Of a DNA stretch of 64,000 nt, positions 1,632-57,518 are shown piece by piece; within the stretch, counting starts at the first letter, position 1; each line of letters opens with the position of its first letter. The DNA lies in contig MHXZ01000103.1 of the NCBI GenBank assembly GCA_001825665.1, positions 5,993 to 69,992 on the forward strand. Reading direction: 5' to 3'. The notes under the pieces were generated by a model. That model was given only the letters and a program-made list of their open reading frames with translations, was not told where the DNA came from and did no database searches. Source of the DNA: Planctomycetes bacterium GWF2_41_51. Lineage in GTDB: Bacteria; Planctomycetota; Phycisphaerae; Sedimentisphaerales; UBA12454. A program made the translations under genes and the position numbers.

Positions 1632-2639
1632 CTAATCTATAACCGCAAAAGCAACTGCCTCGATATTTTGAGGAGGAACGTTAGGCAGGAGTGCCTCATG
1701 GCTTGGGCTGATAATCAGATTGGGGCCAAGTAATTGTTTGATTCTTTTGACATATAATTTTATTTCTTCAGGATTGGAATTAACCAGCAAGTCCTGAGTA
1801 TCAACGGCACCCATGAAACTGATTCTGCCTTTAAATTCTTTAAGCGTTTGCGCATCCATTCCAACAGCTAAAGCCTGCAAAGGATGCAGGCAATCAACTC
1901 CAGCATCGATAAGCCTGTCAATAACTTTGTGAATAGAGCCGCAACTATGTAAAATCACCTGGTAATTATGCGCATGAGCCTGTTTTGTAAAAGTTCTGAA
2001 CCATGGCAGGATAAATTCATCAAATTGAGCGGGACCGCAAATCAAATCAAGCTGAGTTCCAAAATCGTTTCCGAAAAAGAAGCCGTCTATCTGATTGCCT
2101 GCCTCTTTATAAAAACGTTCATTCGCCTCATAATAGAATTGGCATACTTTGTCTGTCAACGCATGTACAACTTCCGGATGCGTATACATTTTTATCAAAT
2201 AATTTTCCATGCCGAAGAGGTCCATCACATTATGATAAAAGCACGTCCAAAAACCACTGGCACGATAAAAATCGCCAGCGGTTCGAAGATGCTCAATACA
2301 TTCATCGAAATTAAGATAATCAGGATTTGGCCAGTCATAATCATTTATTTGAGCAATATTCTGGCAATCAGCAAATACGGGTTTGCAATTTGGATCTTTA
2401 TTGAGACCCGAATCAAACATTTCCTTACCTTCGGGATGCCTATAAGTTGATTTTATAAATTGAGGTGAAATCCATCGCAAATCATCACCGAGTTTTTGTC
2501 TTAATTGTTCTTCCGTTTCGGTTCCGAAATAATTGTGGTAAATCGGCCATGTATCCGGATGAGGATTGCCCAGCCAAAAACCACATCTGTCGGCGACACT
2601 GCCGCTAATAATTTTTTTTAAACGTATTCGACTGTTCAT
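1632..2639 (-). CDS. URO-D/methylcobamide methyltransferase-like TIM-barrel protein
   Basis: GNDFGTQ, ILHSCG, LHPLQ, FMGAVDTQ, ISPSHEAL motifs; lacks the HemE RQAGR motif. Confidence 0.8.
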   Translation of the reverse strand: MNSRIRLKKIISGSVADRCGFWLGNPHPDTWPIYHNYFGTETEEQLRQKLGDDLRWISPQFIKSTYRHPEGKEMFDSGLNKDPNCKPVFADCQNIAQINDYDWPNPDYLNFDECIEHLRTAGDFYRASGFWTCFYHNVMDLFGMENYLIKMYTHPEVVHALTDKVCQFYYEANERFYKEAGNQIDGFFFGNDFGTQLDLICGPAQFDEFILPWFRTFTKQAHAHNYQVILHSCGSIHKVIDRLIDAGVDCLHPLQALAVGMDAQTLKEFKGRISFMGAVDTQDLLVNSNPEEIKLYVKRIKQLLGPNLIISPSHEALLPNVPPQNIEAVAFAVID

Positions 2640-2672: not shown

Positions 2673-3836
2673 TTAATAAACGCATTTTTTAGCTTCATCG
2701 CCGAAAGCCTCGAGTAATTCCAAATCTGCGTCGAAGAAATGGTCTGAGGGCGCAAGAATATATGCGCCATTTCTTCCGGCTTCTTCAAAACATCTTCGCA
2801 CTTCGGCGCGCACATCAGCAGGAGTGCAATCTTTGAAAAAATGCAACTGGTCAAAACCGCCTATCATACAAATATCTGATGGAATACGTTTTCGCGCCTC
2901 AGCAAGATTGGCGTCGCCGCCCATGCCGACTGGAGTAAAGGTTTCCATCGCGTCGGGCTTCATCGCCGCGATCTTTTCGAGTATCGGCATCATGCCTCCG
3001 CAGGTGTGATAAACGACCCTTTGTCCGGCATTGTGTGCGGCCTCTATGATGGGCATATCATAAGGAGCTACGAATTCATCAAATAATTTTGGTGATATGA
3101 CGGTAGATGATGCATCTCCGCCGCCCAATTCGAGAACGTCATATTTAGCGTCCTTGAGCGACTGGGTGAAAATTAATTTTCTTTCCTGTAAGATTTTTAG
3201 AAAGCTGTGCACCCATTGCGGATCATCGAATGTCGCCATGATGAGTTCTTCAATGCCGAAGAGGCATGCAGCATCCTGCCAACAGCCGGGCTGGCCGAAT
3301 ATATCGAAACATGCGATGTGTCCGCGGACAATGCCTCGTTCTCCAAATTCGGCTGCAACATGGTTGACGCTTTGCACATCACATTTTGGGGCTGCGGCAT
3401 ATTTGCCAATCAGGTCAATATCGTTTTTGTTTTTTATAAGGCGCTCGGTTACCCATGATGTGTAATCATTGGAGCCTATCGACATTGTAAGTTCGCCGCC
3501 AGGCGTTTTGAATCTGTATCGGGTCGTAGGATATTTTTGGTGCGGTACGTCCTCCCATTCAATATGCCATTGGTCGGATGAGATAAGACGACTGCCAAGA
3601 AAATCCAGCTCGCCCTGGTTAGGATTATAATACTCGCCTTTTTGCTCATCCGGACGATGAGGCACAGCCCAGGCTATCGGATCGAAGCCAAAACGGTCAA
3701 AAAATTCATCTATGTTTGAACCGTTCATACAATTTTTTAGAAAGAAAGGCATTACATGGTGTGTTGTAATCGGCAGGCGGTCAGGTTTTCCGCCTTTAAG
3801 GGCACAAATCATTCTTTGTTTTGAAGTCATTTGCAT
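2673..3836 (-). CDS. URO-D/methylcobamide methyltransferase-like protein
   Basis: MTSKQRM..AL.GGKPDRLP N-terminus, ISPKLFDEFVAPY, YHTCGG, MIGGFDQ, YILAPSDH. Confidence 0.8.
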   Translation of the reverse strand: MQMTSKQRMICALKGGKPDRLPITTHHVMPFFLKNCMNGSNIDEFFDRFGFDPIAWAVPHRPDEQKGEYYNPNQGELDFLGSRLISSDQWHIEWEDVPHQKYPTTRYRFKTPGGELTMSIGSNDYTSWVTERLIKNKNDIDLIGKYAAAPKCDVQSVNHVAAEFGERGIVRGHIACFDIFGQPGCWQDAACLFGIEELIMATFDDPQWVHSFLKILQERKLIFTQSLKDAKYDVLELGGGDASSTVISPKLFDEFVAPYDMPIIEAAHNAGQRVVYHTCGGMMPILEKIAAMKPDAMETFTPVGMGGDANLAEARKRIPSDICMIGGFDQLHFFKDCTPADVRAEVRRCFEEAGRNGAYILAPSDHFFDADLELLEAFGDEAKKCVY

Positions 3837-8889: not shown

Positions 8890-10695
8890 TTATTTTTTAA
8901 TAGATAATTCCGATATTTCAACTACTGCCTGTTTGTCAATGGATATTTTTGCAATCGCTGAAATTGTAACATAAGTTCCTAAACCAAATAAAGCAAGGCA
9001 TATTCCGCCAATGGCATATCTTGCCAGGCAAATGTAGCCCACGCCAAAAAGTCCAAGGTATATTGTCAATACAGAAATAATCCAACCGAACCAGTTTGCG
9101 CTTACCTTTTCACATTTTGGCATATTCGGTTTATCGGCAAACGGTTTCCACCAGCCGCCGGGCAGGACTTTCAAATAGAATTTTTCCAAATGCTGCAAAT
9201 TAACGGGTTTTGTAATCAAAGTAACAATTATCCAAATAACGGAACTGACCGCAACTATGATCACATACCTGAGAGGAAACATTTCATCCGGCGCGAGCGA
9301 TGGAATGAATTTCAAAGTGTTTGCAAGAATAAATGAGGCGGCCATGGCGGAAATTTCAGACCACGCGTTTATTCTCCACCAGAACCAGCGGAACAGCACC
9401 ACGAAACCGGCTCCGGCATAAACCTCGGCGAGATATTTCCATGCTCCGGCAATAGACGTCATTTGCCATGTAACGATGACGGCTATGATAAGGACAAGCA
9501 CAGTAGCAATGCGTGAAACAAATACATAATGTTTTTTGTTACGCGCATTTGGACAAATAATTCTAATATAGAAGTCGTTTACAAGATAGGCAGCGGCGAG
9601 ATTAAGATTTGCGGCAATGGTACTTAAAAAAGCTGCAATGAAAGCGGCGAGCACAATCCCCATCAGTCCGCCGGGGAGAAACTTGACCATCATCTTTGGA
9701 TATGCAAGTTCGGGGTCTTCGCCGGGAATTAAAGGAAAATAAATCAGCGAAGCAAGTCCGACAATAATCCAGGGCCAACTGCGTAATACAATTATGCAGA
9801 AAAACCCCCAAATGGCGGCCAAACCTGCGTGTTTTCCATTTTTACAGGCAAACATTCGCTGGGCTACGATGCCAAGCCCTGCCGCCGACCACCACCATAA
9901 AAGACCGATGTAAACAAAGAACGTAAAAATCGCCAATAATCCGGCTGTTTTGAAATTAGGAAAGAAATCAAATACGGCCGGCGAAACACCGGGGGCATTT
10001 GCAACATTTTTGACTAACCCCCCAGGGCCTCGGTTTTCATATAAGACGATGACGGCAAGAACAATGAAGCCAACCATTGCCGCGAAAAAATGCAGCACGT
10101 CTGCCATCACAACGCCCCAGGCTCCCGCGAACATTGTATAACTCAATGCAAGCACTAAAAGAATGCCGTATATGAGGACGCTGCTGTAAATTGAAAATGT
10201 AAAAGTGCTTATTGAAAAAGTTACTGTTGACGGTATGTTAAAGATGGCTGAAACAATCTTGCCGACAGCCAGAATGACCCATCCGCAACAGATACAGATG
10301 CCGAAAATTCTTAAAAACGCATTAAATATCCTCAGCATCAAGGCAGCTTTTCCGTGATACCTAAGTTCGATAAATTCGACGTCGGTTAGGACGCCGGCGC
10401 GATTCCAAAGTCTTGCAAAAAAGAAAACCGTGAACATTCCTGAAAGTGCCATTGTCCACCAGAACCAATTTTCGTAAATCCCTGCCCGCCTGATGAAACC
10501 TGAAACAACCAGCGGCGTATCGGTGGCCAGATAAGTGGCAACTATCGAAGTCCCGGCGACAAACCAGTTAAGCTTTCGACCGGCTACGAAGAAGTCTTCC
10601 TTAGTCTTATTTCGATATGAAAACCATAGTCCGAACAAAACGGAGACGACGCAGTAGCCGATGATTATAGACCAATCTATTAAGGTTAACTGCAC
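8890..10695 (-). CDS. Sodium:solute symporter (SSS/SLC5)
   Basis: EDFFVAGRKL.WF.AG.SIVAT, EFIELRY, AQRMFACK, GLMGIVLAAFIAAFLST; GTG start after AGGAG. Confidence 0.9.
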   Translation of the reverse strand: MQLTLIDWSIIIGYCVVSVLFGLWFSYRNKTKEDFFVAGRKLNWFVAGTSIVATYLATDTPLVVSGFIRRAGIYENWFWWTMALSGMFTVFFFARLWNRAGVLTDVEFIELRYHGKAALMLRIFNAFLRIFGICICCGWVILAVGKIVSAIFNIPSTVTFSISTFTFSIYSSVLIYGILLVLALSYTMFAGAWGVVMADVLHFFAAMVGFIVLAVIVLYENRGPGGLVKNVANAPGVSPAVFDFFPNFKTAGLLAIFTFFVYIGLLWWWSAAGLGIVAQRMFACKNGKHAGLAAIWGFFCIIVLRSWPWIIVGLASLIYFPLIPGEDPELAYPKMMVKFLPGGLMGIVLAAFIAAFLSTIAANLNLAAAYLVNDFYIRIICPNARNKKHYVFVSRIATVLVLIIAVIVTWQMTSIAGAWKYLAEVYAGAGFVVLFRWFWWRINAWSEISAMAASFILANTLKFIPSLAPDEMFPLRYVIIVAVSSVIWIIVTLITKPVNLQHLEKFYLKVLPGGWWKPFADKPNMPKCEKVSANWFGWIISVLTIYLGLFGVGYICLARYAIGGICLALFGLGTYVTISAIAKISIDKQAVVEISELSIKK

Positions 10696-13242: not shown

Positions 13243-14775
13243 TTACCAGAAATAAATGATAAAAATAACTACCGCAACCATTGCAATTACACCAATAATT
13301 TTCACTTCGGGCGATGTTCTGACGTCAATATCTTCCCGCACAGGCAGTTTTCTGGGTGTATCGAGAGGTTTGAAGAACGTCAGAATCCCCATTATAACCA
13401 ATACCAGATTGAATGCCATTGCTACTTGCAGCAGGAAATGGATACCGGGTGCGAACCGCTGAAAAATGCCGTAAATTATGGGCCCTGCAATAAGCGCGGC
13501 AACACCTGCGATTGGGGGGGCTGTCGGAACCATCATACCAAACAAGAACGCAGCCACGACGCCGGGCCAGATGTAACCCTGGAACTGCTGGATATATTGA
13601 AAGACGCCGCCGAATTTCGGATTATCAAGTATCGGAGCGAGCAGGCAACCCACCACAACGAAAACCATTGTCATAACCCGGCCAAGAATCAGTAGTTGTT
13701 TTTGAGTCGCGTTGCGATGAAACATTCGGTTATAGATATCCATTGTGAAGATGGTCGAAGTGGAATTGAGCATTGACCCCAATGAACTGATTACCGCACC
13801 GGCAATCGCGGCAAACATAAAGCCGCGAAGTCCCGCTGGAATTAAATTGCGAATCAGCATCGGAAATGCTTCATCAGGCGAGCTCATTTGGCTGCCGTAA
13901 AGCTGATATGACATAATTCCCGGCATCACGATTGCGAATGGAACCAGAAGCCACAGCATTCCAGCAAAGATAACACCGAGCTGGCCGTCCCGCAGACTTT
14001 TGGCCGCGAGATTGCGCTGAACAATAAATTGATTAAGTCCGCAATAATAAATCAGAACAATCCACATTCCTGAAAGAACGCCTGTCCAGGGAAGTCCGGG
14101 ATGCTCCGGCGGCAGAACCATGTGCAGTTTGGCTTCGTTAATGGTTGAGAATTCTTTCCAGCCTCCGCAGGCATCCAGTCCCAAAAAGAATATGATAATT
14201 CCGCCGACAAGCAGCGCAAGTCCCTGAAACAAATCCGCCCAGGCAACCGCTTTCAATCCTCCCCAGACGGTATAAACCGCAGCAATAAGACCTATCAGCC
14301 ACACACCGTGAGTCAGCTTCAGGCCGAAGATTGTCCGCAGCGTAATCCCGCCGGAATAAAGCACAGCAGTTAAAAGTACCGCGACGTAGACAACGACGGT
14401 GGTGATTGCCATAATCCCGCGAGCGGTCGAATTGTATCGATACTCAAGGTACTCAGGCATCGTATAAATACCGGCTTTCAAAAATCGCGGCAACAGCGTA
14501 AACGCAATAATCACGATTCCGAAAGTTCCGTAAAGCTGCCAGTTACTCACCGCCAGTCCTACACTGCCGGCTCCCTGCCCGGCCATTCCCACAAACTGTT
14601 CGGTTGAAATATTTGCGGCGACTATGGAAACTCCGATGAGCCACCAGGTCAGCCCTCGACCGGCCAGAAAATAATCTTCAGAACTTTTTTCCTTTCGGCT
14701 TTTGAAGAGACTTACACCGACCACCACTACAAAGAAACCGACAAACACAATGATATCAAAAGCACTGAGTTCCAT
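13243..14775 (-). CDS. Sodium:sugar symporter (SSS, vSGLT-like)
   Basis: DYFLAGRGLTWWLIGVSIVAANISTEQFVGMAG, YTMPEYLEYRY, GGLKAVAWAD, NQFIVQRNLAAK. Confidence 0.92.
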   Translation of the reverse strand: MELSAFDIIVFVGFFVVVVGVSLFKSRKEKSSEDYFLAGRGLTWWLIGVSIVAANISTEQFVGMAGQGAGSVGLAVSNWQLYGTFGIVIIAFTLLPRFLKAGIYTMPEYLEYRYNSTARGIMAITTVVVYVAVLLTAVLYSGGITLRTIFGLKLTHGVWLIGLIAAVYTVWGGLKAVAWADLFQGLALLVGGIIIFFLGLDACGGWKEFSTINEAKLHMVLPPEHPGLPWTGVLSGMWIVLIYYCGLNQFIVQRNLAAKSLRDGQLGVIFAGMLWLLVPFAIVMPGIMSYQLYGSQMSSPDEAFPMLIRNLIPAGLRGFMFAAIAGAVISSLGSMLNSTSTIFTMDIYNRMFHRNATQKQLLILGRVMTMVFVVVGCLLAPILDNPKFGGVFQYIQQFQGYIWPGVVAAFLFGMMVPTAPPIAGVAALIAGPIIYGIFQRFAPGIHFLLQVAMAFNLVLVIMGILTFFKPLDTPRKLPVREDIDVRTSPEVKIIGVIAMVAVVIFIIYFW

Positions 14776-17701: not shown

Positions 17702-19069
17702 TTATGCTTTTGAATTAAAGTCATGCAAGGCTTTGAACATCGCCAGAATATTCTCGACCGGAACATCGCTTTGAATGTTATGAGTGCCGTTAAAAACATA
17801 ACCGCTGCCCCTGCTTAAAATTCCAAGCCGTTCATAAACCTCCCTATAAACCTCCTGAGGCGTTCCAAACGGAAGCGTCTTTTGCGTATCAACTCCGCCT
17901 CCCCAGAAAGTTATATGCCTTCCAAATTCCCTTTTGAGCTTTACGGGATCCATGCCTTGAGCAGAAAGCTGAACGGGATTAAGTATATCAAAACCCGCAT
18001 CTATCAGGTCTGGTATAAGCTCAGATACCGCTCCACATGAGTGTATAAATATTTTCCAGTTAGTCAATTGGTGAATTTTATCGTTTACCTGTTTCTGGAA
18101 AGGCTTGTAAAGACGGCGGTAAGTCTCAGGCGAGGCAAATAAACCTCTCTGGTGACCGAAATCCGTACCGCTGACGAATACCACCTGTACCATATCGCCT
18201 ACGGCCTTTGCGAGCAGTTCTATGTTTTTGAGGGCTATTTCACATTGCTTTTCAAAAACCTTGTACACATAATCGGCGCGAAGCACGGTCGAGACATACC
18301 ATTCCTCAACGTCGCGAATCCCTTTGGGGTCCTTCATCCATGTCGCAGGCACGAGCGCAACATCACCAAATGCAGCACCGCCGATAGTCATATATATTCC
18401 GCAATCAGTCTCATTGTAGAGTTTTTTGGCTGTATGGGCGTAGTAATCCAAATCAGTCTGACTTAAAACACTAAACTCCTCACAATTGTCTTCAGGATTG
18501 AGAATGCATTCGTCCAAAGGCTTCTGTCGATTCAGGGCATCAAAGAAATAACCTGTTTTCGGCATTTTCGCACAAGGCTGTGCCGTCGTGTCTCCGAGCG
18601 GATACATGAGGGTATCGCCATCTTCGGTAACTGTATAATTAAAATCGCCCGGCACCAATACCGGAGTGCCATCATTCATTTCGAACGGCTTCCAATTTTC
18701 ATTGGTGAAACCGAACATATTGCATCGTGTGGATATTCCGAGGACATCGAGACCAAGAGCCTTGTGTAATTCCGCATCGATTTCGCCAAGCATCTGATAA
18801 GGCTCAATAATCTTGACCCTGAAACCATTTACACCTAATAACGCTTTCCTCAATTTAGATACCGCTCCTGCGCCAATTCCGGTCTGTCCACCAGCCCCAA
18901 AATCGACGCACACACGATCAACTTGCTGGTGATTGAGTGTACAAATCAAACGCTGCCGCGGCGTCATCGATTGCTTTTGAAGATTGCGTTTCACGGTATG
19001 AAGCAATTCATAACTTGTATTTTTGCCAAATTTTACTTTTTGCCATTCAGCAACGCTCATTTGCTGCAC
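17702..19069 (-). CDS. URO-D/methyltransferase-like protein (start uncertain: 19069 GTG, 19060 ATG or later MTPRQR)
   Basis: MTPRQRL...LNHQQVDRV, GTDFGHQ, FIHSCG, DILNPVQ, FWGGGVDTQKTLPFGTP, HNIQSDVP. Confidence 0.8.
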   Translation of the reverse strand: MQQMSVAEWQKVKFGKNTSYELLHTVKRNLQKQSMTPRQRLICTLNHQQVDRVCVDFGAGGQTGIGAGAVSKLRKALLGVNGFRVKIIEPYQMLGEIDAELHKALGLDVLGISTRCNMFGFTNENWKPFEMNDGTPVLVPGDFNYTVTEDGDTLMYPLGDTTAQPCAKMPKTGYFFDALNRQKPLDECILNPEDNCEEFSVLSQTDLDYYAHTAKKLYNETDCGIYMTIGGAAFGDVALVPATWMKDPKGIRDVEEWYVSTVLRADYVYKVFEKQCEIALKNIELLAKAVGDMVQVVFVSGTDFGHQRGLFASPETYRRLYKPFQKQVNDKIHQLTNWKIFIHSCGAVSELIPDLIDAGFDILNPVQLSAQGMDPVKLKREFGRHITFWGGGVDTQKTLPFGTPQEVYREVYERLGILSRGSGYVFNGTHNIQSDVPVENILAMFKALHDFNSKA

Positions 19070-19226: not shown

Positions 19227-20837
19227 TTAAACGCTCATAGTCCGATAGAAATGCATTAGCATCTCCCAGCCTATTGAAAAGGCAATCCATGCGGCTGCAA
19301 GAATCAATGCACATTTCTTGAGTCCGGGCCATGTTTTGAGACCAACAAATGGGCCTTTAACATCTTCAAGAGTATAAATAGTCAGATTTTTAAGTTTTTC
19401 GTCAGCAACAGGTGTTTCAAAAAAGCTTAACATCACTGCCAGAACGATTGTCAGTATAAACGAGAAAAACCCGATATATACAAAATTGAGTTCTGTATAA
19501 TTATCAACGGTAATCGCAGACAACAAAGAAACAATCATCGCTGTCAGAGCTGACAACGGCCCTGTTCTTTTTGAAAATAATCCCACTAAGTATATTCCAA
19601 CTACCACGCCAAGAACATCCCCGTAAAAACTCTGGATGAACGTCATGACAGAAGCACTTTTCATAATGATTGGAATCAGTAAAATTGTAATAATTAAAGT
19701 GAGAAATTCCGCAAAACGTATAAAAGTTTTGCGTTCCCTGATATTTGAGGACCTGCGAATGATTCTGAAATAAAAATCTTCCGCAAACAGCGTACTCCCC
19801 GCAGTAAGCATCCCATCAACCGTTGAAAGCAACGCGGCAAGCATACCCGCTATCAGCACTCCGCGAAGACCTATCGGAAACATATCCGTGAGAGCTTTGA
19901 TAAATGCCTGGTCAGGCAGAATATCCGGCATCATAATTCGCATCGCGCCTCCTACTAAATATGAAGCAGTAGGATAAAATACCACCAGCACGGAAACCCC
20001 CATCAAACCTTTTTGGGCGTGTTGTTCGTTTTTCGCAGCTAAAAGCCTTTGTGCCATACCGTAATTGCACGTCAGCCATCCAAGCCCTGCAATAGGCGCC
20101 CATGTCAGCACCGCCTGCATTGGGAAAAACTTGCTTGTGAATAGAGACCAATCTGACGGCGGAATAATGCTGCCGATATGTACGCCGCTGTTACCGACAA
20201 CAGCCGCTCTGGCCAATTCGCCAAGTCCGCCAAGTTTAAATAAAGCCACAATCATCACAGTAAAAAGAGTGATAATCACAAATATACCCTGATAGAAATC
20301 AAGCGTTAAAACAGTTTTCATCCCGCCGACAATTACATAAATGCCGATGATGACACAGATAAGAATTGAACTGGCAATCACCGACCAGCCCAGCAGGCTC
20401 TGCAAAAGCAAAGCCCCCATAAAAACCGCTCCGGCAAGTGTAACTACAAGGATGGCAGTCAGAACTAATGAAAATACTACACGGCTTGGCAAACTGAAAC
20501 GCTTCTCAAGATACTCCGGCGTTGTGACGATACGGCTTCGCCAGTATATAGGCACAAAAAACATAGCTGAAATCCAGCCTGTAAACCACATGTGCACAGA
20601 GTTCCATTGAATAAGGTAAAAACCCCACAAAAAACCAAGTCCTGACAGAGACATAATCGCCGGGTCTGCGGCCATTGCAAAAAGAGTCAATGCTGTTTGA
20701 TACCATGTTTGAGTCTTGCCGCCGGTGATAAAGTCCTCATCGGTCGTTCGCTTCTTGTGATAACGGCTGATAAAAAGACCGGCACCAAGAACACACAAAA
20801 AATAAATTCCTACAATAATCGAATCAATGTACTTCAT
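19227..20837 (-). CDS. Sodium:solute symporter (SSS)
   Basis: DEDFITGGK, TTPEYLEKRF, GGMKTVLTLD, AQRLLAAKNE, GLRGVLIAGMLAALLST; RBS GGAGG. Confidence 0.9.
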   Translation of the reverse strand: MKYIDSIIVGIYFLCVLGAGLFISRYHKKRTTDEDFITGGKTQTWYQTALTLFAMAADPAIMSLSGLGFLWGFYLIQWNSVHMWFTGWISAMFFVPIYWRSRIVTTPEYLEKRFSLPSRVVFSLVLTAILVVTLAGAVFMGALLLQSLLGWSVIASSILICVIIGIYVIVGGMKTVLTLDFYQGIFVIITLFTVMIVALFKLGGLGELARAAVVGNSGVHIGSIIPPSDWSLFTSKFFPMQAVLTWAPIAGLGWLTCNYGMAQRLLAAKNEQHAQKGLMGVSVLVVFYPTASYLVGGAMRIMMPDILPDQAFIKALTDMFPIGLRGVLIAGMLAALLSTVDGMLTAGSTLFAEDFYFRIIRRSSNIRERKTFIRFAEFLTLIITILLIPIIMKSASVMTFIQSFYGDVLGVVVGIYLVGLFSKRTGPLSALTAMIVSLLSAITVDNYTELNFVYIGFFSFILTIVLAVMLSFFETPVADEKLKNLTIYTLEDVKGPFVGLKTWPGLKKCALILAAAWIAFSIGWEMLMHFYRTMSV

Positions 20838-45187: not shown

Positions 45188-46732
45188 TTATTCAGAGTCT
45201 GTTCTGAAAGGCGAGACCGGCAATCCCTGCTTGTTGAAAAGATTGCATTCGATCCAGTCAGACCAGCCATATCGAACGGCTGCCGGATTTTTCACATGTT
45301 CAGACCAGACAAGAACTGCATCACCATCAAGTTTAGCGTTTGCCCATACGAATTTTTTATCATGGCCTGCGATTGAGAATCCTTTTATTTCATTTCCTTT
45401 CGATACCAGTGATGAACCAAAGGTATCGAAAGTAATGCGAACTTTGTTTTCTTCGACTTTCATGTTTTTGTACATTGGGCTTGAATAGACAATGTCCTTA
45501 AAGCCGTAATCTTTCGCCAAAGCCCATAATGCAAGACGTTTGCCGACTTGCTGTTTATTTTTTGGGTGAATTTTAAATACTTCACCAATGTCCATGATGA
45601 CAGCCATGCCGGTGTTTTTCAAATTCAATGTCATTGATTGTGCTTCACGAAGTTTAGCCCAATTTGAATCAGGAGGAAGCGATAAATCCGGGCGACCTTT
45701 AGAATCTTTTTTCATCTGTTTTCCAAAAGGAGCAAGCTGAACATAATAAAAAGCAAAATCGCCCTGCTTCCAATCATCACGCCAATTTTGAATCATGGCA
45801 GGGAATAATTTTCTATACCGCAAAGCATCATTGACGTTCGATTCGCCCTGATACCATATCACACCTTTGATAGCGAATGGGATAATGGGATGAATCATGG
45901 CATTATAAAGCATCGAAGACCTGTTTTTATCGTTTAATTCGCCTGGTAATCTCGGTTCAGGCAGAGACTTGCCGGAAGTTTGTTTTGCTTTTTCCTCTTT
46001 CCAGCTTCGGAGCTGCTGATCATATTTAGCCTGATATTGGGGTTTATCTGCAATGATTTGCTGGTCGAAATCCCAATACCATTTCAAATCATTATCGCCG
46101 ATGAGGATTTCTTTTCGAGTCCATGCTTGGGCGGGCGTTCCGCCGAAAGAAGAATTAATAAGACCGATGGGCACATTTAATTTATTGTGCAATTCCCGGC
46201 CGAAATAATACGCGACCGCACTGAATTGTGCAATGTTTGCAGAGTCGCATATCAGCCATTTACCAACTGTATCATCAAGAGGCTGCGGAGAAGCTTTTCT
46301 TTGAACTGTGAACAAACGAATGTGAGGATAGTCAGCAGCGGCTATTTCATCATTCGCATCATTGGCATCTTTTACAGTCCATTGCATGTTGGATTGGCCG
46401 GAACAAAGCCAGACCTGACCGATAAGAATGTTTTCTATTGTCGTGGATTCATTATTGGAAGATATTGTTATAGTGCAGTTATTACCGCTTTTAGGTGTTT
46501 TTACTTTTAGCTGCCATTTACCACTATTATCTGCAACAGCAACATTTTTTTCGTTTGACCATGAACAAGTTACTTCGACTTTTGCCAAAGGATCGGCAGT
46601 GCCCCAAAGAGGCGCGTTTGTATCGGCCTGAAGAACCATATTGTCTGAAATAATAGATGGTAATTTTATTTCAGCAAAAGAAAACGAAACAAGTGAGACG
46701 ATAATAGCAAAATAAAATATCTTCCTGACCAT
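45188..46732 (-). CDS. Sialate O-acetylesterase-like (SASA) carbohydrate esterase, secreted
   Basis: LPSIISDNMVLQ, VWLCSGQSNM, FSAVAYYFG, GVIWYQGESN, LREAQ, IHPKNKQQVGKRLA. Confidence 0.9.
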   Translation of the reverse strand: MVRKIFYFAIIVSLVSFSFAEIKLPSIISDNMVLQADTNAPLWGTADPLAKVEVTCSWSNEKNVAVADNSGKWQLKVKTPKSGNNCTITISSNNESTTIENILIGQVWLCSGQSNMQWTVKDANDANDEIAAADYPHIRLFTVQRKASPQPLDDTVGKWLICDSANIAQFSAVAYYFGRELHNKLNVPIGLINSSFGGTPAQAWTRKEILIGDNDLKWYWDFDQQIIADKPQYQAKYDQQLRSWKEEKAKQTSGKSLPEPRLPGELNDKNRSSMLYNAMIHPIIPFAIKGVIWYQGESNVNDALRYRKLFPAMIQNWRDDWKQGDFAFYYVQLAPFGKQMKKDSKGRPDLSLPPDSNWAKLREAQSMTLNLKNTGMAVIMDIGEVFKIHPKNKQQVGKRLALWALAKDYGFKDIVYSSPMYKNMKVEENKVRITFDTFGSSLVSKGNEIKGFSIAGHDKKFVWANAKLDGDAVLVWSEHVKNPAAVRYGWSDWIECNLFNKQGLPVSPFRTDSE

Positions 46733-46736
46733 TGCG

Positions 46737-47663
46737 TCATCCTTTAAAATCTTTAAATTGTTTCAAATATTTTGCTATCTTTTCCTTTTCCGGTTCTCTG
46801 AAACAATGGAACGGTTCTTCGATAAAGTCGTTGCAGATGCCCATCAGATTCAATGAGGCTTTCACGCCTTTGATGAAACTTGAGCTATATCTGCCTGTAC
46901 TGTAAATCGTCGTGCTAATCCACATAACTTTTTTGTGCAGTTCACGAATTTTCTCTATATCACCTGCAATTGATGCGTTATACAAATCAACGTACAATTT
47001 CGGGAAAATGTTAGCCCCGCCGCAGATTCCGCCGTGGCCGCCAAGCAAGATTGTCTCGGCAAGCAGTTCTTCAGGACCAACAAGGAAAGAAAAATCTTTT
47101 CTTTCATTTAGCAGTAAAAGTAATTTATGGAAATAAATCATATTCGCGGAACTATCTTTGATGCCGTGAATATTTGGTATTTGGGCAGCTTTAATAACCG
47201 TATCAGGCTCAAAGAAAACTTTTGTGCAGCTTGGCATGTTATACAAATACAGCGGCAATGGAATTTTCGGAGCAAGATGCTCAATGTACTCTATCAATTC
47301 AGGCTGACCAGCCTGAAAATAATAAGGCGGAGCGAGAACGACAGCGCTGACGCCCTGTTTTTGTGAGTGTTCAGCAATTTTTATAGATTCGATGTGCGAT
47401 GTATCTGTGATGCCGACGAGGACGGGAACGCGATTATTGACGAGTTTGCAGGTACGTTCGATTAATTCGTAGCGAAGTTTGTAGCTTAAAGACGGAGCTT
47501 CGCCTGTGGTGCCGAGAATGAACAGGCCATGGACTCCGCCTGCGATGATATGTTCGACAAGTTTTTCCAAACCTTTAACGTCGATGTTGTCCCTGTCGAG
47601 CAGAGGTGTAATCATTGGCGGTATTATGCCTTTAAGTGGCCGGGGTAAATTTGATATTTTCAT
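46737..47663 (-). CDS. DapA/N-acetylneuraminate lyase-family aldolase
   Basis: GIIPPMITP, GTTGE, LYNMP, GIKDSS (Schiff-base Lys). Confidence 0.88.
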   Translation of the reverse strand: MKISNLPRPLKGIIPPMITPLLDRDNIDVKGLEKLVEHIIAGGVHGLFILGTTGEAPSLSYKLRYELIERTCKLVNNRVPVLVGITDTSHIESIKIAEHSQKQGVSAVVLAPPYYFQAGQPELIEYIEHLAPKIPLPLYLYNMPSCTKVFFEPDTVIKAAQIPNIHGIKDSSANMIYFHKLLLLLNERKDFSFLVGPEELLAETILLGGHGGICGGANIFPKLYVDLYNASIAGDIEKIRELHKKVMWISTTIYSTGRYSSSFIKGVKASLNLMGICNDFIEEPFHCFREPEKEKIAKYLKQFKDFKG

Positions 47664-47665
47664 TA

Positions 47666-48811
47666 TTAATTATTCCTTTTAAATTTTTTTGATGCTTCAA
47701 TTAAAGCATTAATATTTTCCTTAGCAGTATTTGGCGGAACAACACAGCCTGAGCCAAGTATGAATCCGCCCTTTGAACCTGCGCCTGCCATACATTCAAA
47801 AGCTTCATTCATCACTTCTTTGGGAGTTCCGTTCAGAAGAGTGAGTGTGTTTACGCCGCCCATTAACGAAACACTATCTCCTGCTTTTTCGCGAGCCTGC
47901 TTTACTGTAAAACCACCAAGAGGGTCAAGAGGCGCAATGTTATCAAGACCTGCTTCGACAAGCAAATCAATAATGGGAAGTACATTGCCGCAGATGTGAC
48001 AATAAATAATTGCATTTTTATTATATTTATGCAGTTCTGTACAAATTGTTTTGATGTATGGAAAGACAAATTCTTTCCAGTGCTGCGGAGAAATCAAAGA
48101 CATATTGCCGGCCGAATCATTCAATCGCAAAACATTGATGCCCATATCGAGCCAGTATTTGCCTTTGTTAATTGCAATTTGCGTGCCCTTTTCAAGGACA
48201 GCATGCACCAGACCAGGTTGCATAACCAAATCCATCATTGCATTATTCATGCCTCTAAAAGCGATGTAAAAAGCGATTGTTGCTGAATCACAATTTCCGA
48301 TAAAATGCAAGTTATTGCCGAATTCGTCAATTACAGCTTTTTGCCTTTTTGCCCAACCGAGCTGATTAAATACATTGGAATCAGGAACAGCAATTGCCTT
48401 TACATCTTCAATTGAATTTATAACAGGCTCTGGAGAAATCCAATTATGACAATAAGCCATCGTGAAAGGGTCGGAGATGTTGTAATCTTTGGAATCGAAA
48501 AGATGAGTTGCCAAACCGCCGGCCATATCGATTTTACCGATTCTCTCGCCGGATTTATTTATTTCGAAAACTTCGCCGTTTTCTTCAATAATATTTCTTG
48601 GAGCAAAGTGAAATTGTCTGACGGCATCAACTTCCAATTTTTTACCGGCTTGTGCAATTACCTTTAAAGCCGTTAAAGGGTACTGGATGATATCTATCAA
48701 AGATGTGCCAGTAACTTTAGCAGAGAAATCGACCCAGATTTTTGGCACAACAGGTACACGGTCAACTTCTTTGCCTTTAAGAGCATTTAAAAATCGTTCT
48801 GATACTTTCAT
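47666..48811 (-). CDS. URO-D/MtaA-like methyltransferase-fold protein
   Basis: ERFLNALKGKEVDRVPV, ISPQHWKEFVFPY, HICG, LMGGVN, FILGSGC (MtaA-type HxC...C Zn site). Confidence 0.85.
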   Translation of the reverse strand: MKVSERFLNALKGKEVDRVPVVPKIWVDFSAKVTGTSLIDIIQYPLTALKVIAQAGKKLEVDAVRQFHFAPRNIIEENGEVFEINKSGERIGKIDMAGGLATHLFDSKDYNISDPFTMAYCHNWISPEPVINSIEDVKAIAVPDSNVFNQLGWAKRQKAVIDEFGNNLHFIGNCDSATIAFYIAFRGMNNAMMDLVMQPGLVHAVLEKGTQIAINKGKYWLDMGINVLRLNDSAGNMSLISPQHWKEFVFPYIKTICTELHKYNKNAIIYCHICGNVLPIIDLLVEAGLDNIAPLDPLGGFTVKQAREKAGDSVSLMGGVNTLTLLNGTPKEVMNEAFECMAGAGSKGGFILGSGCVVPPNTAKENINALIEASKKFKRNN

Positions 48812-48812
48812 A

Positions 48813-51344
48813 TTATTTTGTCAATTCGTGCCAAATATCATACATTTTTTTACACTCGTCAATGCTATCCGGAAAAACGGTCGGACGCAAGACGCATTTA
48901 GCGCCTGTGTCTTTGATAATATTCGCGATTCGAGTTAGATACTGTTTCCATGATTCTTTTTCCATGTTCGCGAGTTTACCATAGAAAATAGTATTAGTTT
49001 TTGCACATTTATCAAGCAAATGGTGCGTATCATACATTTCGGGATTGCCCAAATCGATTGCCTTAACGAAATCACATTCGAGTATCTTATCATATAAATA
49101 ATCGTGTTTGCCGCAGAAATGCACGAAAGCACCGCCAAATGGCTTTGCGGCCTGCCGCATGTAAGGAATTACAAATTCATCAATCATCGAAGGCGAGAGA
49201 AGCGTAGGCGTATCTTCGGAAAGCCTTACACCTGCGTTTGGAAAGTAAAGGCCCTGCTGTGTGCCGTGGCCGTGAAACATTGAGCCGGCATCTTCTCCCA
49301 TACATTTTTTGAGCTTTAACGAAACCTTGACATAAAATTCTGTGATGATATGTAAAAGCTCTTTGATTTTTTCTTTTTTGTCCGCAAGTTCATAGAAAAT
49401 CGCATCGCCAAGAAGTAAATGCAGGATATCAAATACGCCCTGCGTATCAGGCATGTACGTACAAATCTGCCGTGAACCTTTTTTGTTGTTTATTTCATAA
49501 AATTTTTCGGCAAGGTTCATCACCTGTGTAGAACCAATATCAATATTTCTGATTTCGGAAATTTGTTCTATTGATAAATGTTCGCCCGGCCAAGGCATTT
49601 GACCATCTCTGATGACAAAATCCTGCCCGGCAATGGATGGAATAAAAATCGTACCAAGATTTGGCCTGATTGCCGGTATTCCATCTGTCGGCCAATCCAG
49701 AACAGCCGTTGCTCTTTTGCATTCAGCATCCCACATTTTTTGAGGATCATAAAATCGCTGCTCATAATTATCAGTATCGTATTGAACCATTTGAGCAGAA
49801 GGTATGAAAATCAGGCAGGATGTTTTTGACTGCCAGAAATCTTTATGAAGTTGCTTTTTCTGTTCAGTGTTCATTGCCGCTCCGCCGGAAAAAACCAAAA
49901 TAAATCCAACTAAAATCAAGATGCCTACGCCGCAGGCACCTGCAAGAATGCTGTCAATATTGCATTGAGCCCATTTCCAATTTTCTGGAAGGCTGCGGAA
50001 GAAAGTAACCCAGGAAATGACAAGAATGCTTGCAGCAACAGCGGTGATGCCCTGCCATGATTTTAATTTCACTTTGCAAAGCGCCAGTATGAACAGGCCG
50101 AGGATTCCGCCGCCGAAAATTCCGGAAATCTGCCACCAGATGTTTAATGCGCTTTGAGCTCTAATCATCAGGACCGCAAAGATAATTGAAAGTCCGCCCC
50201 AGACAACGGTTGTCCAGCGGAGGAATGAAAGACTTTTCTTTTCGCTTAAATCAGGTTTCATCCATTTAATAAAATCAAGAAGCAATACTGTTGCGGAACT
50301 ATTCAATGATGAACTAAGGGTACTCATGGCCGCGGCGATGATTGCTGCGATGATTAGGCCTTTTAAGCCCACAGGCAATTGCGTAGCAATAAAATACGGG
50401 AATACCTGGTCACCTTTTGTAATTGTGTCGGGCAACACGTTGCCGCCGGTGTGATAGAATGCAAAAAGCGATGTTCCGATATACAGGAAAACAGGAGTCA
50501 TTGGGATGTAGATTGCCATGCTGATGATAATCGCTTTTTTTGCGGAACGTTCATCGGAAACCGTTGAGTATTTCTGGACATAATTCTGGTCAGCGATTAA
50601 ATTTCGCAAATTTTCGGTCAGACTGTAAATAATCATTACCCATATCGTCCTGCTTGAAAAAGAAAAATCGAGACTGCCAAGACTGAATTTGCCCGCTTCG
50701 GCAGCAAGCTTAATTGGATATTCCGGGCCGGTGAAAAGATATTTTGTAAAGAGTATCACGCAGAAGAGCAGACCGCCAATCATGATTATGGATTGCATTA
50801 CGTCAGTCCAGATGACTGCTTCCATTCCCCCGACGAGAGTGTAAAAAACTGTGATAAGACCTATGATTATAATCAAGGTAACAATATTGATGGGTATGAA
50901 AGTTCCGACAAGCAGTGCTGTGAGATAGATGATAACAGCGGAACGGCCAATCATGTAAACAACGAATGATAGCGCACTGTAAATTCTTGCCCATTTGCCA
51001 AGGCTGTTTTCAAGCAGGCTATAAACTGATACAAGTTTTATTCTTCGATAATATGGAATGATGTACCAGCAGACTAACCAGACAATGGGCGGTATGCAAA
51101 GAACAAAAACTGCTGGGTGCCAATTAGTATCGAATGCCTGGCCGGGAACAGCGATGTAGGAAATGCTGCTGACATACGCGCTCATAACCGCGATGCCGGC
51201 TGCCCATGCTGGAATAGATTGGCCCGCGAGCATGAACTGTTCACTGGTGCGAGTTTTGCGAAAATAATATACGCCCATGCCGACACAAATCAAAGCGTAT
51301 AAAATTAACATTGATATATCGATAACGCCTAAATTTGCTGTCAT
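48813..51344 (-). CDS. SSS symporter (SiaT-like, about 490 aa) fused in frame to a URO-D-like domain (about 353 aa)
   Basis: N-terminal FMLAG..IPAWAAG, GGMEAVIWTD, DQNYVQKY, AAMSTLSSSLNS; C-terminal DTQGVFD, SEDTPTLLSPSMIDEFVIPY, VHFCG; no stop between the parts. Confidence 0.8.
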   Translation of the reverse strand: MTANLGVIDISMLILYALICVGMGVYYFRKTRTSEQFMLAGQSIPAWAAGIAVMSAYVSSISYIAVPGQAFDTNWHPAVFVLCIPPIVWLVCWYIIPYYRRIKLVSVYSLLENSLGKWARIYSALSFVVYMIGRSAVIIYLTALLVGTFIPINIVTLIIIIGLITVFYTLVGGMEAVIWTDVMQSIIMIGGLLFCVILFTKYLFTGPEYPIKLAAEAGKFSLGSLDFSFSSRTIWVMIIYSLTENLRNLIADQNYVQKYSTVSDERSAKKAIIISMAIYIPMTPVFLYIGTSLFAFYHTGGNVLPDTITKGDQVFPYFIATQLPVGLKGLIIAAIIAAAMSTLSSSLNSSATVLLLDFIKWMKPDLSEKKSLSFLRWTTVVWGGLSIIFAVLMIRAQSALNIWWQISGIFGGGILGLFILALCKVKLKSWQGITAVAASILVISWVTFFRSLPENWKWAQCNIDSILAGACGVGILILVGFILVFSGGAAMNTEQKKQLHKDFWQSKTSCLIFIPSAQMVQYDTDNYEQRFYDPQKMWDAECKRATAVLDWPTDGIPAIRPNLGTIFIPSIAGQDFVIRDGQMPWPGEHLSIEQISEIRNIDIGSTQVMNLAEKFYEINNKKGSRQICTYMPDTQGVFDILHLLLGDAIFYELADKKEKIKELLHIITEFYVKVSLKLKKCMGEDAGSMFHGHGTQQGLYFPNAGVRLSEDTPTLLSPSMIDEFVIPYMRQAAKPFGGAFVHFCGKHDYLYDKILECDFVKAIDLGNPEMYDTHHLLDKCAKTNTIFYGKLANMEKESWKQYLTRIANIIKDTGAKCVLRPTVFPDSIDECKKMYDIWHELTK

Positions 51345-51515
51345 TGCTTATCGTCCTTAACTAATTTGATATCATTATCGCCGTATAGCTTAACTATTCT
51401 TGCAGTCCTTAGCCGCCCAAAAACTTTCTCAAATACCTTCAGATATAGTTTATAATTGTAATTTATTAAGCGGGAAATTCAATCAATATCATTGATGTTA
51501 CTCGAATGCTGAAAA

Positions 51516-52658
51516 TCATTCAAAAGCTGCTGTTCTTACCACTTTTGATTTTTCAGAATTAATACCCACAATTTTGCCGCACTTTTGAGTTGGTTTGGAA
51601 TTCTGCCACGAGCATAATTGAATGAAAAGCGATAACATTCTTTTCTTTTGTTCGTCGTCGGCTTTCAAATGTCTGTGAAAGCCTTTTTCATTTTTTTCAA
51701 AAATCACATACCCTTCATCTGTAACTTTCGCAGTGCCTTTTTCAGAAAACGAAAAATATCCATCATCCGGACGGACAGCATAGAGTATGCTCAAAAGATC
51801 CCATGTTGCACGGTCACGGGGTTTGCCGGTAAAAACTTTATAAGCCTCGGCAACAGGATGAACAGGAATCCAGCTATAATCCTGTTCTATGCTTTTATAA
51901 GGATACAGCATTTTATTTGCTATTTCGAAACCATTGAAAACAACCTCAACGGGGCAATTTTCAAAAAAGTATTTTGCTGATTTGATATCGAGCCGAATAT
52001 TATATTCCCTGTTTTGCATTGTAGGATTTTTCTGGACTTCATCGCTGAAATCGCCTGCCATCGCGGAAACGAAACTAACTTTTTGTTTAAATAATTCAGT
52101 GCCGGTCAGAGATGAAAATTCATCAGGTTCGGTCGCGAGAAGACGAGCCATGTTCGTGGAAAAACCTATCATTACAATAACAACTGATTTATCAGGCTGA
52201 GACGAAAGAAGCTTTCTCAAGAGCTTAACAGAATCATAAGGCGGATTTTGATTAGAAATTTTCCTGGGAAATACGAAATTCCCATTTTTATCTCTCAGGT
52301 CTGATACATACCTGAGAAATTTGCCATTTTTATCCTTTACGCCTTGATTAACAAGCCCAACGGGTATGTCAGGGCGGCCATAGAATGAATTAAGCACCGA
52401 AGTATAAACTGCTGAATAGAAATCATCATTGCAAACAGTCATGCCGAGAATATTGCATTCACCAAAACTTTGGAGCGTATGGCAGAGAGCAATCGCCAGA
52501 GCATCATCAATGTCGTTGCCAACATCAGTGTCGATAATCAGAGAAACAGGTTGTGGATTAATCATTGTTAAACCTTGAACATTAATAAAAAAACAATTTA
52601 TAATAAATATTAAAAAACAAGTTAATAGTTTCTGCAATTTCTCATCCAGCCATTCCAA
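51516..52658 (-). CDS. Inosine/uridine-preferring nucleoside hydrolase-like protein (start uncertain: TTG about 52637 with signal-like segment, or ATG 52565)
   Basis: IIDTDVGNDIDDALA (DxDxxxDD), IGFSTN, MAG, EYNIRLD, WDL. Confidence 0.8.
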   Translation of the reverse strand: MEWLDEKLQKLLTCFLIFIINCFFINVQGLTMINPQPVSLIIDTDVGNDIDDALAIALCHTLQSFGECNILGMTVCNDDFYSAVYTSVLNSFYGRPDIPVGLVNQGVKDKNGKFLRYVSDLRDKNGNFVFPRKISNQNPPYDSVKLLRKLLSSQPDKSVVIVMIGFSTNMARLLATEPDEFSSLTGTELFKQKVSFVSAMAGDFSDEVQKNPTMQNREYNIRLDIKSAKYFFENCPVEVVFNGFEIANKMLYPYKSIEQDYSWIPVHPVAEAYKVFTGKPRDRATWDLLSILYAVRPDDGYFSFSEKGTAKVTDEGYVIFEKNEKGFHRHLKADDEQKKRMLSLFIQLCSWQNSKPTQKCGKIVGINSEKSKVVRTAAFE

Positions 52659-56477: not shown

Positions 56478-57518
56478 TTAGGGCTGCCAGATTGTGGCGG
56501 CAATATGCTGCTGCGGATTGGTGACGGTCGCGTAATAATAAATAGTAACGATTTTACCATCCGGCCGCTGAATACTGCGCGGATAGCCGAGATCCCAGCT
56601 TAAACCGTCATTTCTTAAAGTGATTTCACTGCCCCATGTTTGGCCGTTATCTGTACTGATTTTGGCTTTAATTCCATAGGGTGAATATCTTTGGCCGTAA
56701 GCTATACATATTCTGCCGTCAGCGAGTTTGAGCATTGCCGGCGGATTATTTATATTGTTTACAACTAAGCTTAAGTAATTCCAGCTTTTCGCTCCATCAA
56801 TCGATTTGTAAATATCGATATATTGCGAATTACCTCTGCGCTGTCTTAAAGCTGTGATGTACGTATCATCAGCAATTTTCACGGTCGATGACATTACTGT
56901 GAAGTTATGATCGCCTGCATCGATGGGCGGACTTGGGGCGACCCAGGAAAGAAAATCAAACGTTCTGCCCGCATTTTTTGTTACGGCACAAAAAGTTCTG
57001 CCTTCTACTCCATCCGATTTTGCAGCAGTGACGAAAAACAAGACTTCGCATTGTGAATTTACAATATAATCAGTGCGGGCGATGAGTCTTGTCTGATCTA
57101 ATTTTGGAAATTCGAAAGGCCCCTGCCAGTTTCTTCCTCTGTCATACGAAAAATAATATTTCGACAATCGAGATTTATATGCGAAATCTGGATGTGTAAA
57201 ATTTATAGCTCCAATCGGTTTCTGAAAACCTCCTTGATTCAAAACCTGCGGTGTTTCAAGAGTCCATGTTTGCCCGCCATCGAGACTTCTTGCCTGCACT
57301 GTGTCGGTAGCATAATCAGGATCAACGCTATGGCCGTCAGGATTATATTTGTACACGCCTATGTTGAAACCAACGAGGATTTCATTGCCCCATGACCAGA
57401 CTCCTTCGTTAGCGGGCCAGGCACAGAATTTACCGCTTTGCTGATAAACGATCACATTCTCTGCAAATGCGAAAGGCGTGCAGGTAAGTAAAAAAATTAT
57501 AAAGATTTTTTTATTCAT
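56478..57518 (-). CDS. BNR/Asp-box beta-propeller (sialidase-like fold), secreted
   Basis: Asp-boxes SLDGGQTW, SYDRGRNW, SIDGAKSW, STDNGQTW; WDLGYP; start MNKKIF at 57518. Confidence 0.8.
   Translation of the reverse strand: MNKKIFIIFLLTCTPFAFAENVIVYQQSGKFCAWPANEGVWSWGNEILVGFNIGVYKYNPDGHSVDPDYATDTVQARSLDGGQTWTLETPQVLNQGGFQKPIGAINFTHPDFAYKSRLSKYYFSYDRGRNWQGPFEFPKLDQTRLIARTDYIVNSQCEVLFFVTAAKSDGVEGRTFCAVTKNAGRTFDFLSWVAPSPPIDAGDHNFTVMSSTVKIADDTYITALRQRRGNSQYIDIYKSIDGAKSWNYLSLVVNNINNPPAMLKLADGRICIAYGQRYSPYGIKAKISTDNGQTWGSEITLRNDGLSWDLGYPRSIQRPDGKIVTIYYYATVTNPQQHIAATIWQP

Follow-up and report, generated by a model that had tools for sequence, protein, structure and literature searches.

How does a membrane symporter come to carry a soluble enzyme as its own carboxy-terminal extension, and does such a union tell us what that enzyme does? 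The question is raised by a stretch of 64,000 nucleotides from the genome of Planctomycetes bacterium GWF2_41_51 (contig MHXZ01000103.1, positions 5,993 to 69,992), hereafter the window, in which a single open frame of 843 amino acids on the minus strand (48813..51344) joins a symporter of the SSS family to an enzyme predicted to share the fold of uroporphyrinogen decarboxylase (URO-D) and of MtaA. A sequence-only reading of the window had noticed this frame and left two ways open: the fusion was a Rosetta stone, linking the enzyme to the imported solute, or it had followed from the recent loss of a stop codon. We consider it likely that the fusion is real and recent, that it was formed in a single lineage from adjacent genes by the loss of one base, and that it is incidental; we find no evidence of any selection for the covalent link or for the fusion as such.

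The junction is built as the sequence-only reading had described it. The 843-residue frame, the letters GGC GGA GCG GCA ATG on the minus strand, the internal ATG at codon 491 (Met491, 49872..49874) and, 5 nt 5′ of it, a Shine-Dalgarno-like GGAG (49880..49883), at a place where relatives have GGAGG-like motifs, are all present, and the identical protein is on record on three contigs. The symporter part (residues 1-490; 49875..51344, minus strand) closes with a final hydrophobic helix at about residues 466-487, after which the enzyme part (residues 491-843; 48813..49874, minus strand) runs to a TAA at 48815-48813. A second gene of the URO-D family begins one base later, with an ATG at 48811, as had also been said. 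Shine-Dalgarno-like tetramers are found 8-16 nt 5′ of 18 of the 39 starts of open reading frames in the window, as against 25 of the 441 in-frame ATGs internal to these frames, and among 13 aligned stand-alone homologs of the enzyme six start exactly at the Met491 column, one more starting a single residue earlier. The rarity of such signals at internal ATGs, taken together with these aligned starts, argues that the ATG and the GGAG of the junction are the inherited start signals of an enzyme gene that was once separate.

How the two genes became one can be read from the closest homolog of the symporter part. This protein, P0274 (89% identity), is encoded by a stand-alone gene, the longest of its contigs reaching 319 kb; it has 493 amino acids and ends in ...IGFIFGFFQRRSIEH. 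The fused frame tracks it through VGFI (Ile482), then departs into LVFSGGAA and on to Met491. From the next codon onwards it is the -1 frame that carries what looks like the former end of the symporter, a ghost tail FGFFRRSGNEH followed by TGA (49864..49899, minus strand, the stop being at 49866-49864). Seven of its 11 residues are identical to the final 11 of P0274 (FGFFQRRSIEH), and the end point is the same, for Ile482 plus 11 residues makes 493 amino acids, the length of P0274. The ghost TGA is intact and lies 8-10 nt past the ATG of the enzyme. Since the fused frame matches P0274 as far as Ile482, and the -1 frame does so from the next codon, one base would be missing in the run of four T at 49897..49900 (minus strand), which is one base shorter than in a P0274-type frame and sits where the frame switches, right after Ile482. 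The comparison argues that the loss of this base put the symporter into the frame of the enzyme. It also tells us, as deduced from the ghost frame and from the end of the P0274 protein, that in the ancestor the stop of the symporter must have lain 11 nt into the enzyme gene.

Overlap between the two genes is the rule in the enzyme family. In five loci the gene directly upstream of an enzyme homolog is that of a symporter, and in all of them its stop overlaps the start of the homolog by 4 nt, through ATGA in loci L011, L012, L054 and L080 and through GTGA in L072; a GGAGG-like motif lies within the symporter tail in four of the five, L012 having just AGGA. Because the other frame still preserves both the old tail and its stop, the fusion would be recent on the evolutionary scale, or else an error. 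The recent loss of a stop, which the sequence-only reading had kept as its alternative, is therefore the idea that fared best, with the proviso that a one-base frameshift bypasses a stop codon that is still there and has not mutated. Another route, in which a T was gained in the run of six at 49889-49894 and the starting point was an ATGA overlap of the L011 or L012 type, was considered and dropped, as P0274 fits the other alternative frame.

A Rosetta-stone argument asks that the same two-domain protein be met in other genomes, and here the search was wide. A word-indexed search with residues 491-843, among proteins of 463-1476 amino acids, returned the query alone out of 1557 candidates. An exhaustive phmmer search with the full protein against 1.84 billion representatives gave a list whose best 150 matches each covered one half only (best symporter match 508 amino acids at 62% identity, best enzyme match 363 amino acids at 46%). 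The enzyme is fused to a symporter in none of 80 genome loci of its family. Within the same taxonomic order, 14 of 401 sampled genomes carry an ortholog (E ≤ 1e-80), in frames of 353-452 amino acids in the other 13 and of 844 in this one; no match was found at E ≤ 1e-20 in the 11 genomes of the same genus, and a metagenome scan gave three loci, all of them lacking an upstream symporter; the contigs of P0274 and of P0004 (see below) were not among the three. The symporter with a C-terminal enzyme of URO-D fold was thus not seen elsewhere in the databases, the 80 loci or the 13 ortholog genomes. A conserved Rosetta-stone architecture finds no support in these searches, in which the fusion is confined to a single lineage. 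That orthologs are two separate genes, the outcome that had been named as a refutation, counts against an old and conserved architecture and not against a fusion in this genome. One protein, P0004, had looked like a second instance: it is 87% identical, 5′-partial on a contig of 1285 nt, and begins with LASSIGAAM. Its eight extra residues are symporter tail in the enzyme frame and are silent on the stop of that symporter, and it was set aside. Prediction of a complex from the separate symporter and enzyme alignments returned a score of 0.00, which is evidence neither way.

The symporter half belongs to a well-known family. Residues 37-423 match the sodium:solute symporter domain PF00474 (E 4.7e-38; 131.6 bits for a cut-off of 22.8), TIGR00813 falls slightly short (181.4 for a cut-off of 184), and among solved structures the best match is to SiaT of Proteus mirabilis (PDB 5nv9, E 6.5e-66). 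About 13 transmembrane helices are expected: in a Kyte-Doolittle scan 12 segments stand out clearly and the seventh is weaker, and loops rich in lysine and arginine follow helices 1, 3, 9 and 11, a positive-inside pattern. SiaT is described as having 13 helices, with its N-terminus out and its C-terminus in (PMC5931594). Hydropathy, the distribution of charges and the analogy with SiaT all lead to the prediction of a cytoplasmic C-terminus. As for the substrate, the direct ligands of N-acetylneuraminic acid (Neu5Ac) given for SiaT are Thr58, Ser60, Thr63, Gln82 and Arg135 (PMC5931594). Three of the five positions are kept here, Ser59, Ser62 and Arg134 standing for the carboxylate-binding Ser60, Thr63 and Arg135, whereas Thr58 is replaced by Tyr57 and Gln82 by Val81, so that the protein does not have the full ligand set of a Neu5Ac transporter. 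The N-acetyl pocket of SiaT, Phe78, Gly81 and Phe243, likewise becomes Pro77, Phe80 and Ser241 in the alignment with 5nv9. These positions make an acidic sugar other than plain Neu5Ac the probable substrate.

Fusion of transporters to enzymes of their pathway is already established. In the SiaF clade, the mutarotase NanM is N-terminal on SiaT-related ST5 (SSS) transporters of sialic acid, and this was presented as the first covalent coupling of enzyme and transporter in sialic acid biology (Severi et al., 2021, PMC8461474). Many homologs of the symporter of the window share this fusion to NanM. The case differs from ours on each count: the enzyme of SiaF is a periplasmic β-propeller, N-terminal and found in a whole clade, whereas here a cytoplasmic TIM-barrel enzyme would be C-terminal, in a single genome, by way of a one-base frameshift. 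Closer in layout is P0151 (711 amino acids), a related symporter with a C-terminal cytoplasmic domain of the YhcH/YjgK/YiaL type (DUF386), although its enzyme fold is another one; YhcH is tied to sialic acid as a Neu5Ac anomerase in the same report (PMC8461474). Further C-terminal additions on related symporters are three IPT/TIG domains in P0171 (791 amino acids) and a pyridine-nucleotide-disulphide oxidoreductase part in P0158 (587 amino acids).

What kind of enzyme was appended is less immediate. Residues 491-843 score 16.9 bits against the URO-D domain PF01208, under its cut-off of 23.9, and orthologs score 17.7 and 20.5. An AlphaFold2 model made with 53 homologs reaches a predicted local distance difference test (pLDDT) value of 95.3. 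Its best matches in Foldseek, uroporphyrinogen decarboxylases (for example 2q71 and 1r3s) and MtaA (4ay7), have the same TIM-barrel fold, with TM-scores of 0.60-0.67 at only 10-14% identity; 29 matches have E ≤ 0.001, UroD and MtaA coming first, then one other protein (9fou) and MetE. The model thus has the (β/α)8 barrel of the URO-D/MtaA/MetE superfamily, and URO-D clusters also come up in a search of a protein language-model atlas. A profile of the enzyme family found no match by sequence among the solved structures of the PDB at E ≤ 1. We may therefore understand the enzyme part, as modelled, to belong as a remote relative to the URO-D/MtaA fold, and not to be a recognisable uroporphyrinogen decarboxylase. 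The label URO-D that it had received is right at the level of fold and superfamily; it goes too far at the level of the Pfam domain, and the H-x-C-G motif, common to the enzyme and its MtaA-like neighbour, has nothing specific to decarboxylases.

The family itself is large, with 564 matches, of which the 120 listed are stand-alone proteins of 308-393 amino acids, around a typical length of some 353. Its invariant residues include H201, H203, H252, C254 and H257; the motif H252-x-C254-G is invariant in 53 sequences and aligns, profile against profile, with H272-x-C274-G of the neighbouring URO-D/MtaA-like gene. The zinc methyltransferases MtaA and CmuA hold their metal through a motif H-x-C ... 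C. In the family discussed here a later cysteine, Cys327, is invariant in an alignment of 14 sequences (column C349), but not even nearly so in that of 53. The invariant cluster of histidine and cysteine suggests a metal site. The resemblance to MtaA does not extend to the surroundings, for the gene neighbours of the family are glycan and sugar-acid genes, not genes of methyl transfer. No corrinoid partner of the MtaC type is present among the 39 open reading frames of the window, and the genome has only two such genes, on another contig (G000:C14:8711-9298 and 9753-10343). Corrinoid-dependent O-demethylation of a sugar, or methyl transfer in the manner of MtaA, is accordingly not supported by the neighbourhood, although the two distant genes would be compatible with it.

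URO-D genes have undergone a very large expansion in this organism: its 4.8-Mb genome gives 71 six-frame matches to PF01208, or about 65 genes mostly of 320-460 amino acids, and four of them lie in the window (1632-2639, 2673-3836, 17702-19069 and 47666-48811), besides the enzyme half that remains below the cut-off. Elsewhere in the enzyme family, a frame of 1050 amino acids (L028:1895-5044) has a homolog at its C-terminal end; ahead of it, in the same frame, stand about 700 amino acids that show weak matches of the FG-GAP and rhamnogalacturonan-lyase-like kinds. It could be one more fusion or a fortuitous read-through.

A simple scenario can be proposed from these elements. The ancestor would have had a SiaT-like symporter of sodium and an acid sugar, 493 amino acids long, adjoining the gene of a cytoplasmic enzyme of URO-D/MtaA fold with 353 amino acids, the stop of the symporter falling 11 nt within that gene. 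One base would then have been lost from a short run of T, 11 codons ahead of the symporter stop, replacing the native tail FGFF..EH by LVFSGGAA. Ribosomes would bypass the old stop and continue past the last membrane helix to Met1 of the enzyme, whose first helix starts at residue 3 of its domain, leaving about three residues between the two helices. Because the C-terminus of the symporter is predicted to be cytoplasmic, the enzyme, a cytoplasmic protein in its relatives, would be tethered, nearly without linker, on the correct side of the membrane. Free enzyme may persist as well, by internal initiation at Met491, where the GGAG and the ATG have been kept.

Is the missing base missing in the organism, or only in its assembly? 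If the true genome had one more T, it would encode a 493-residue symporter and a separate 353-residue enzyme gene overlapping by 11 nt. We hold such an artefact to be unlikely and the fusion to be most likely real, and there is nevertheless much that speaks against a real and recent fusion and must be set out. A single base separates the sequence from the ancestral frame, it sits in a homopolymer, and homopolymers are the classic site of insertion and deletion errors; neither the ghost tail nor its stop shows any damage; the fusion is unique; and every copy on record of the junction DNA goes back to a single sample or to the genome deposit. The ancestral overlap was moreover deduced from the ghost frame of the window and the P0274 protein, not from the DNA of P0274, and the match of the ghost frame is short, with seven identities in 11 residues. 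None of the runs in which the stretch occurs is recorded as RNA; the sole RNA run of the sample has nothing on the stretch and no bearing on expression. What tips the balance is that two independently built assemblies agree. In the Logan contigs, an independent assembly of the reads of the sample, a 14.6-kb piece spans 49356-51600 with no difference and no gap at a depth of about 38, and no variant, insertion or deletion is reported across 48500-51600. At such a depth, errors are not normally expected in a run as short as four T. The check on reads that the sequence-only reading had asked for is in this way answered in part, at the level of contigs; contigs hide minority variants, and a consensus error or a mixed population would be compatible with them.

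If the fusion is real, it might have been kept because it is useful, an enzyme held at the exit of the symporter channelling the imported acid sugar into catabolism. The topology is compatible with this, the genes are translationally coupled in relatives through their 4-nt overlaps, and related symporters have repeatedly been joined to enzymes of sialic acid, NanM at the N-terminus and, once, YhcH at the C-terminus. A selected bifunctional protein seems improbable to us all the same: no search brought a second instance, the untouched ghost tail and stop point to a time too short for selection to have left a visible mark, and a linker of about three residues may constrain both parts. The mutation could, conversely, be damaging, the symporter having lost its native tail and the enzyme being tied to the membrane by its N-terminus, with impaired activity and an allele on its way to loss. 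The native tail of 11 residues is indeed conserved in length and in its end between the ghost frame and P0274, and loss could be borne in a genome that has seven stand-alone paralogs of the enzyme, with three more symporter genes in the window that could compensate. Yet both domains are otherwise full length and intact, all 37 invariant residues of the family are present (these having been defined on this very sequence), and the downstream genes are undisturbed, which makes this outcome very improbable. A recent and incidental fusion of neighbours remains the account that we prefer. There is a more ambitious version, which we consider quite unlikely, in which the 843-residue protein is a working machine for import and processing, its enzyme half coming from a widespread and uncharacterised family of URO-D fold. 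It would then be the first documented C-terminal fusion of a cytoplasmic enzyme in SiaT-related symporters, and the enzyme family would carry out a new step in the catabolism of ulosonic (sialic-acid-like) acids, between uptake and aldol cleavage.

A pathway is suggested, independently of the fusion, by the genes around it. The second URO-D-family gene (47666..48811, minus strand) encodes an MtaA-like protein of 381 amino acids, with a match to PF01208 at E 5.5e-48 (164.2 bits); models of the MtaA/CmuA type stay below their cut-offs, and 4ay7 is matched at E 3e-16. It is followed by a gene of 308 amino acids for a class I aldolase-type enzyme of the DHDPS/NanA family (46737..47663, minus strand; PF00701, E 1.1e-60), which scores under the cut-off of the dapA model as of the nanA model, and then by a gene with a domain match of the SASA type, sialate O-acetylesterase-like (45188..46732, minus strand). 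The DHDPS-family protein matches PDB 4xky, annotated as a dihydrodipicolinate synthase, at E 2.9e-116, far above other DapA and NanA structures; 4xky comes from Bacteroides thetaiotaomicron, and may or may not be the product of BT_2814. In that organism an uncharacterised SSS gene, BT_2813, adjoins the NanA-like BT_2814 (PMC8461474). Upstream of the fusion, a co-oriented run of genes (56478..63224, minus strand) includes four with Pfam matches to BNR_2, a sialidase-like β-propeller, and one without any Pfam match (58577-60112).

The same order of symporter, enzyme, second URO-D gene and DHDPS-family gene is found in L011, from Sedimentisphaeraceae, and in L012, the symporters of which are 67% and 63% identical to that of the window. 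More broadly, the 80 loci of the enzyme family have 57 upstream and 60 downstream neighbours on the same strand, some of the genomes being closely related, so that the counts are not independent. BNR_2 proteins account for 11 of the upstream and six of the downstream neighbours, sodium:solute symporters for five and four, the DHDPS family for two and seven, sulfatases for four and two, and the URO-D family for two on either side. These associations, and the residues of the symporter, lead us to infer that what the locus takes up is a carboxylated sialic-acid-like sugar other than plain Neu5Ac. A single pathway would then run from this import through the two enzymes of URO-D fold, which would convert the sugar into the substrate of the DHDPS-type lyase, to its cleavage by the latter. 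The proposal that the enzyme acts on the imported solute draws its support in this way from conserved gene order and from the start/stop overlaps of relatives, to which a one-off fusion adds little.

The fusion itself is of little importance. It is a clean example of how overlapping and coupled genes become one protein when a single base slips, seen here while the old stop and the old tail have yet to decay. The better lead is the family of some 353 amino acids, with its URO-D fold, no Pfam match above threshold and no solved relative that sequence can detect, which adjoins genes for BNR_2 proteins, SiaT-like symporters and DHDPS/NanA-type lyases in many phyla that degrade glycans; with it goes the great number of URO-D-family genes in this genome. 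Its reaction, once found, would add a step to catabolism of the sialic acid type in environmental Planctomycetota, Verrucomicrobiota and Bacteroidota. Among the titles and openings of abstracts returned by literature searches, subscription journals being outside their scope, none points to enzymes of the URO-D family in loci for sialic acid or polysaccharides, or in Phycisphaerae, and no paper listed by one of these searches has the words 'uroporphyrinogen decarboxylase'.

Some further features of these loci deserve mention. Proteins of about 700-860 amino acids that combine a formylglycine-generating-enzyme-like domain (FGE-sulfatase) with BNR_2 adjoin enzyme homologs in at least eight loci, upstream in L021, L052, L059, L062 and L089 and downstream in L024, L060 and L077. 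The window has three other SSS genes (8890-10695, 13243-14775 and 19227-20837), and the last of these is directly followed by the URO-D-family gene at 17702-19069, so that the pairing of symporter and URO-D recurs in this genome. Just upstream of the fusion, 51516-52658 encodes a protein that resembles nucleoside hydrolases (PF01156) and is hydrophobic at its N-terminus; a close homolog in Rikenellaceae (L046:470-1525, E 2e-70) lies about 2.5 kb upstream of a gene of the enzyme family, on the opposite strand.

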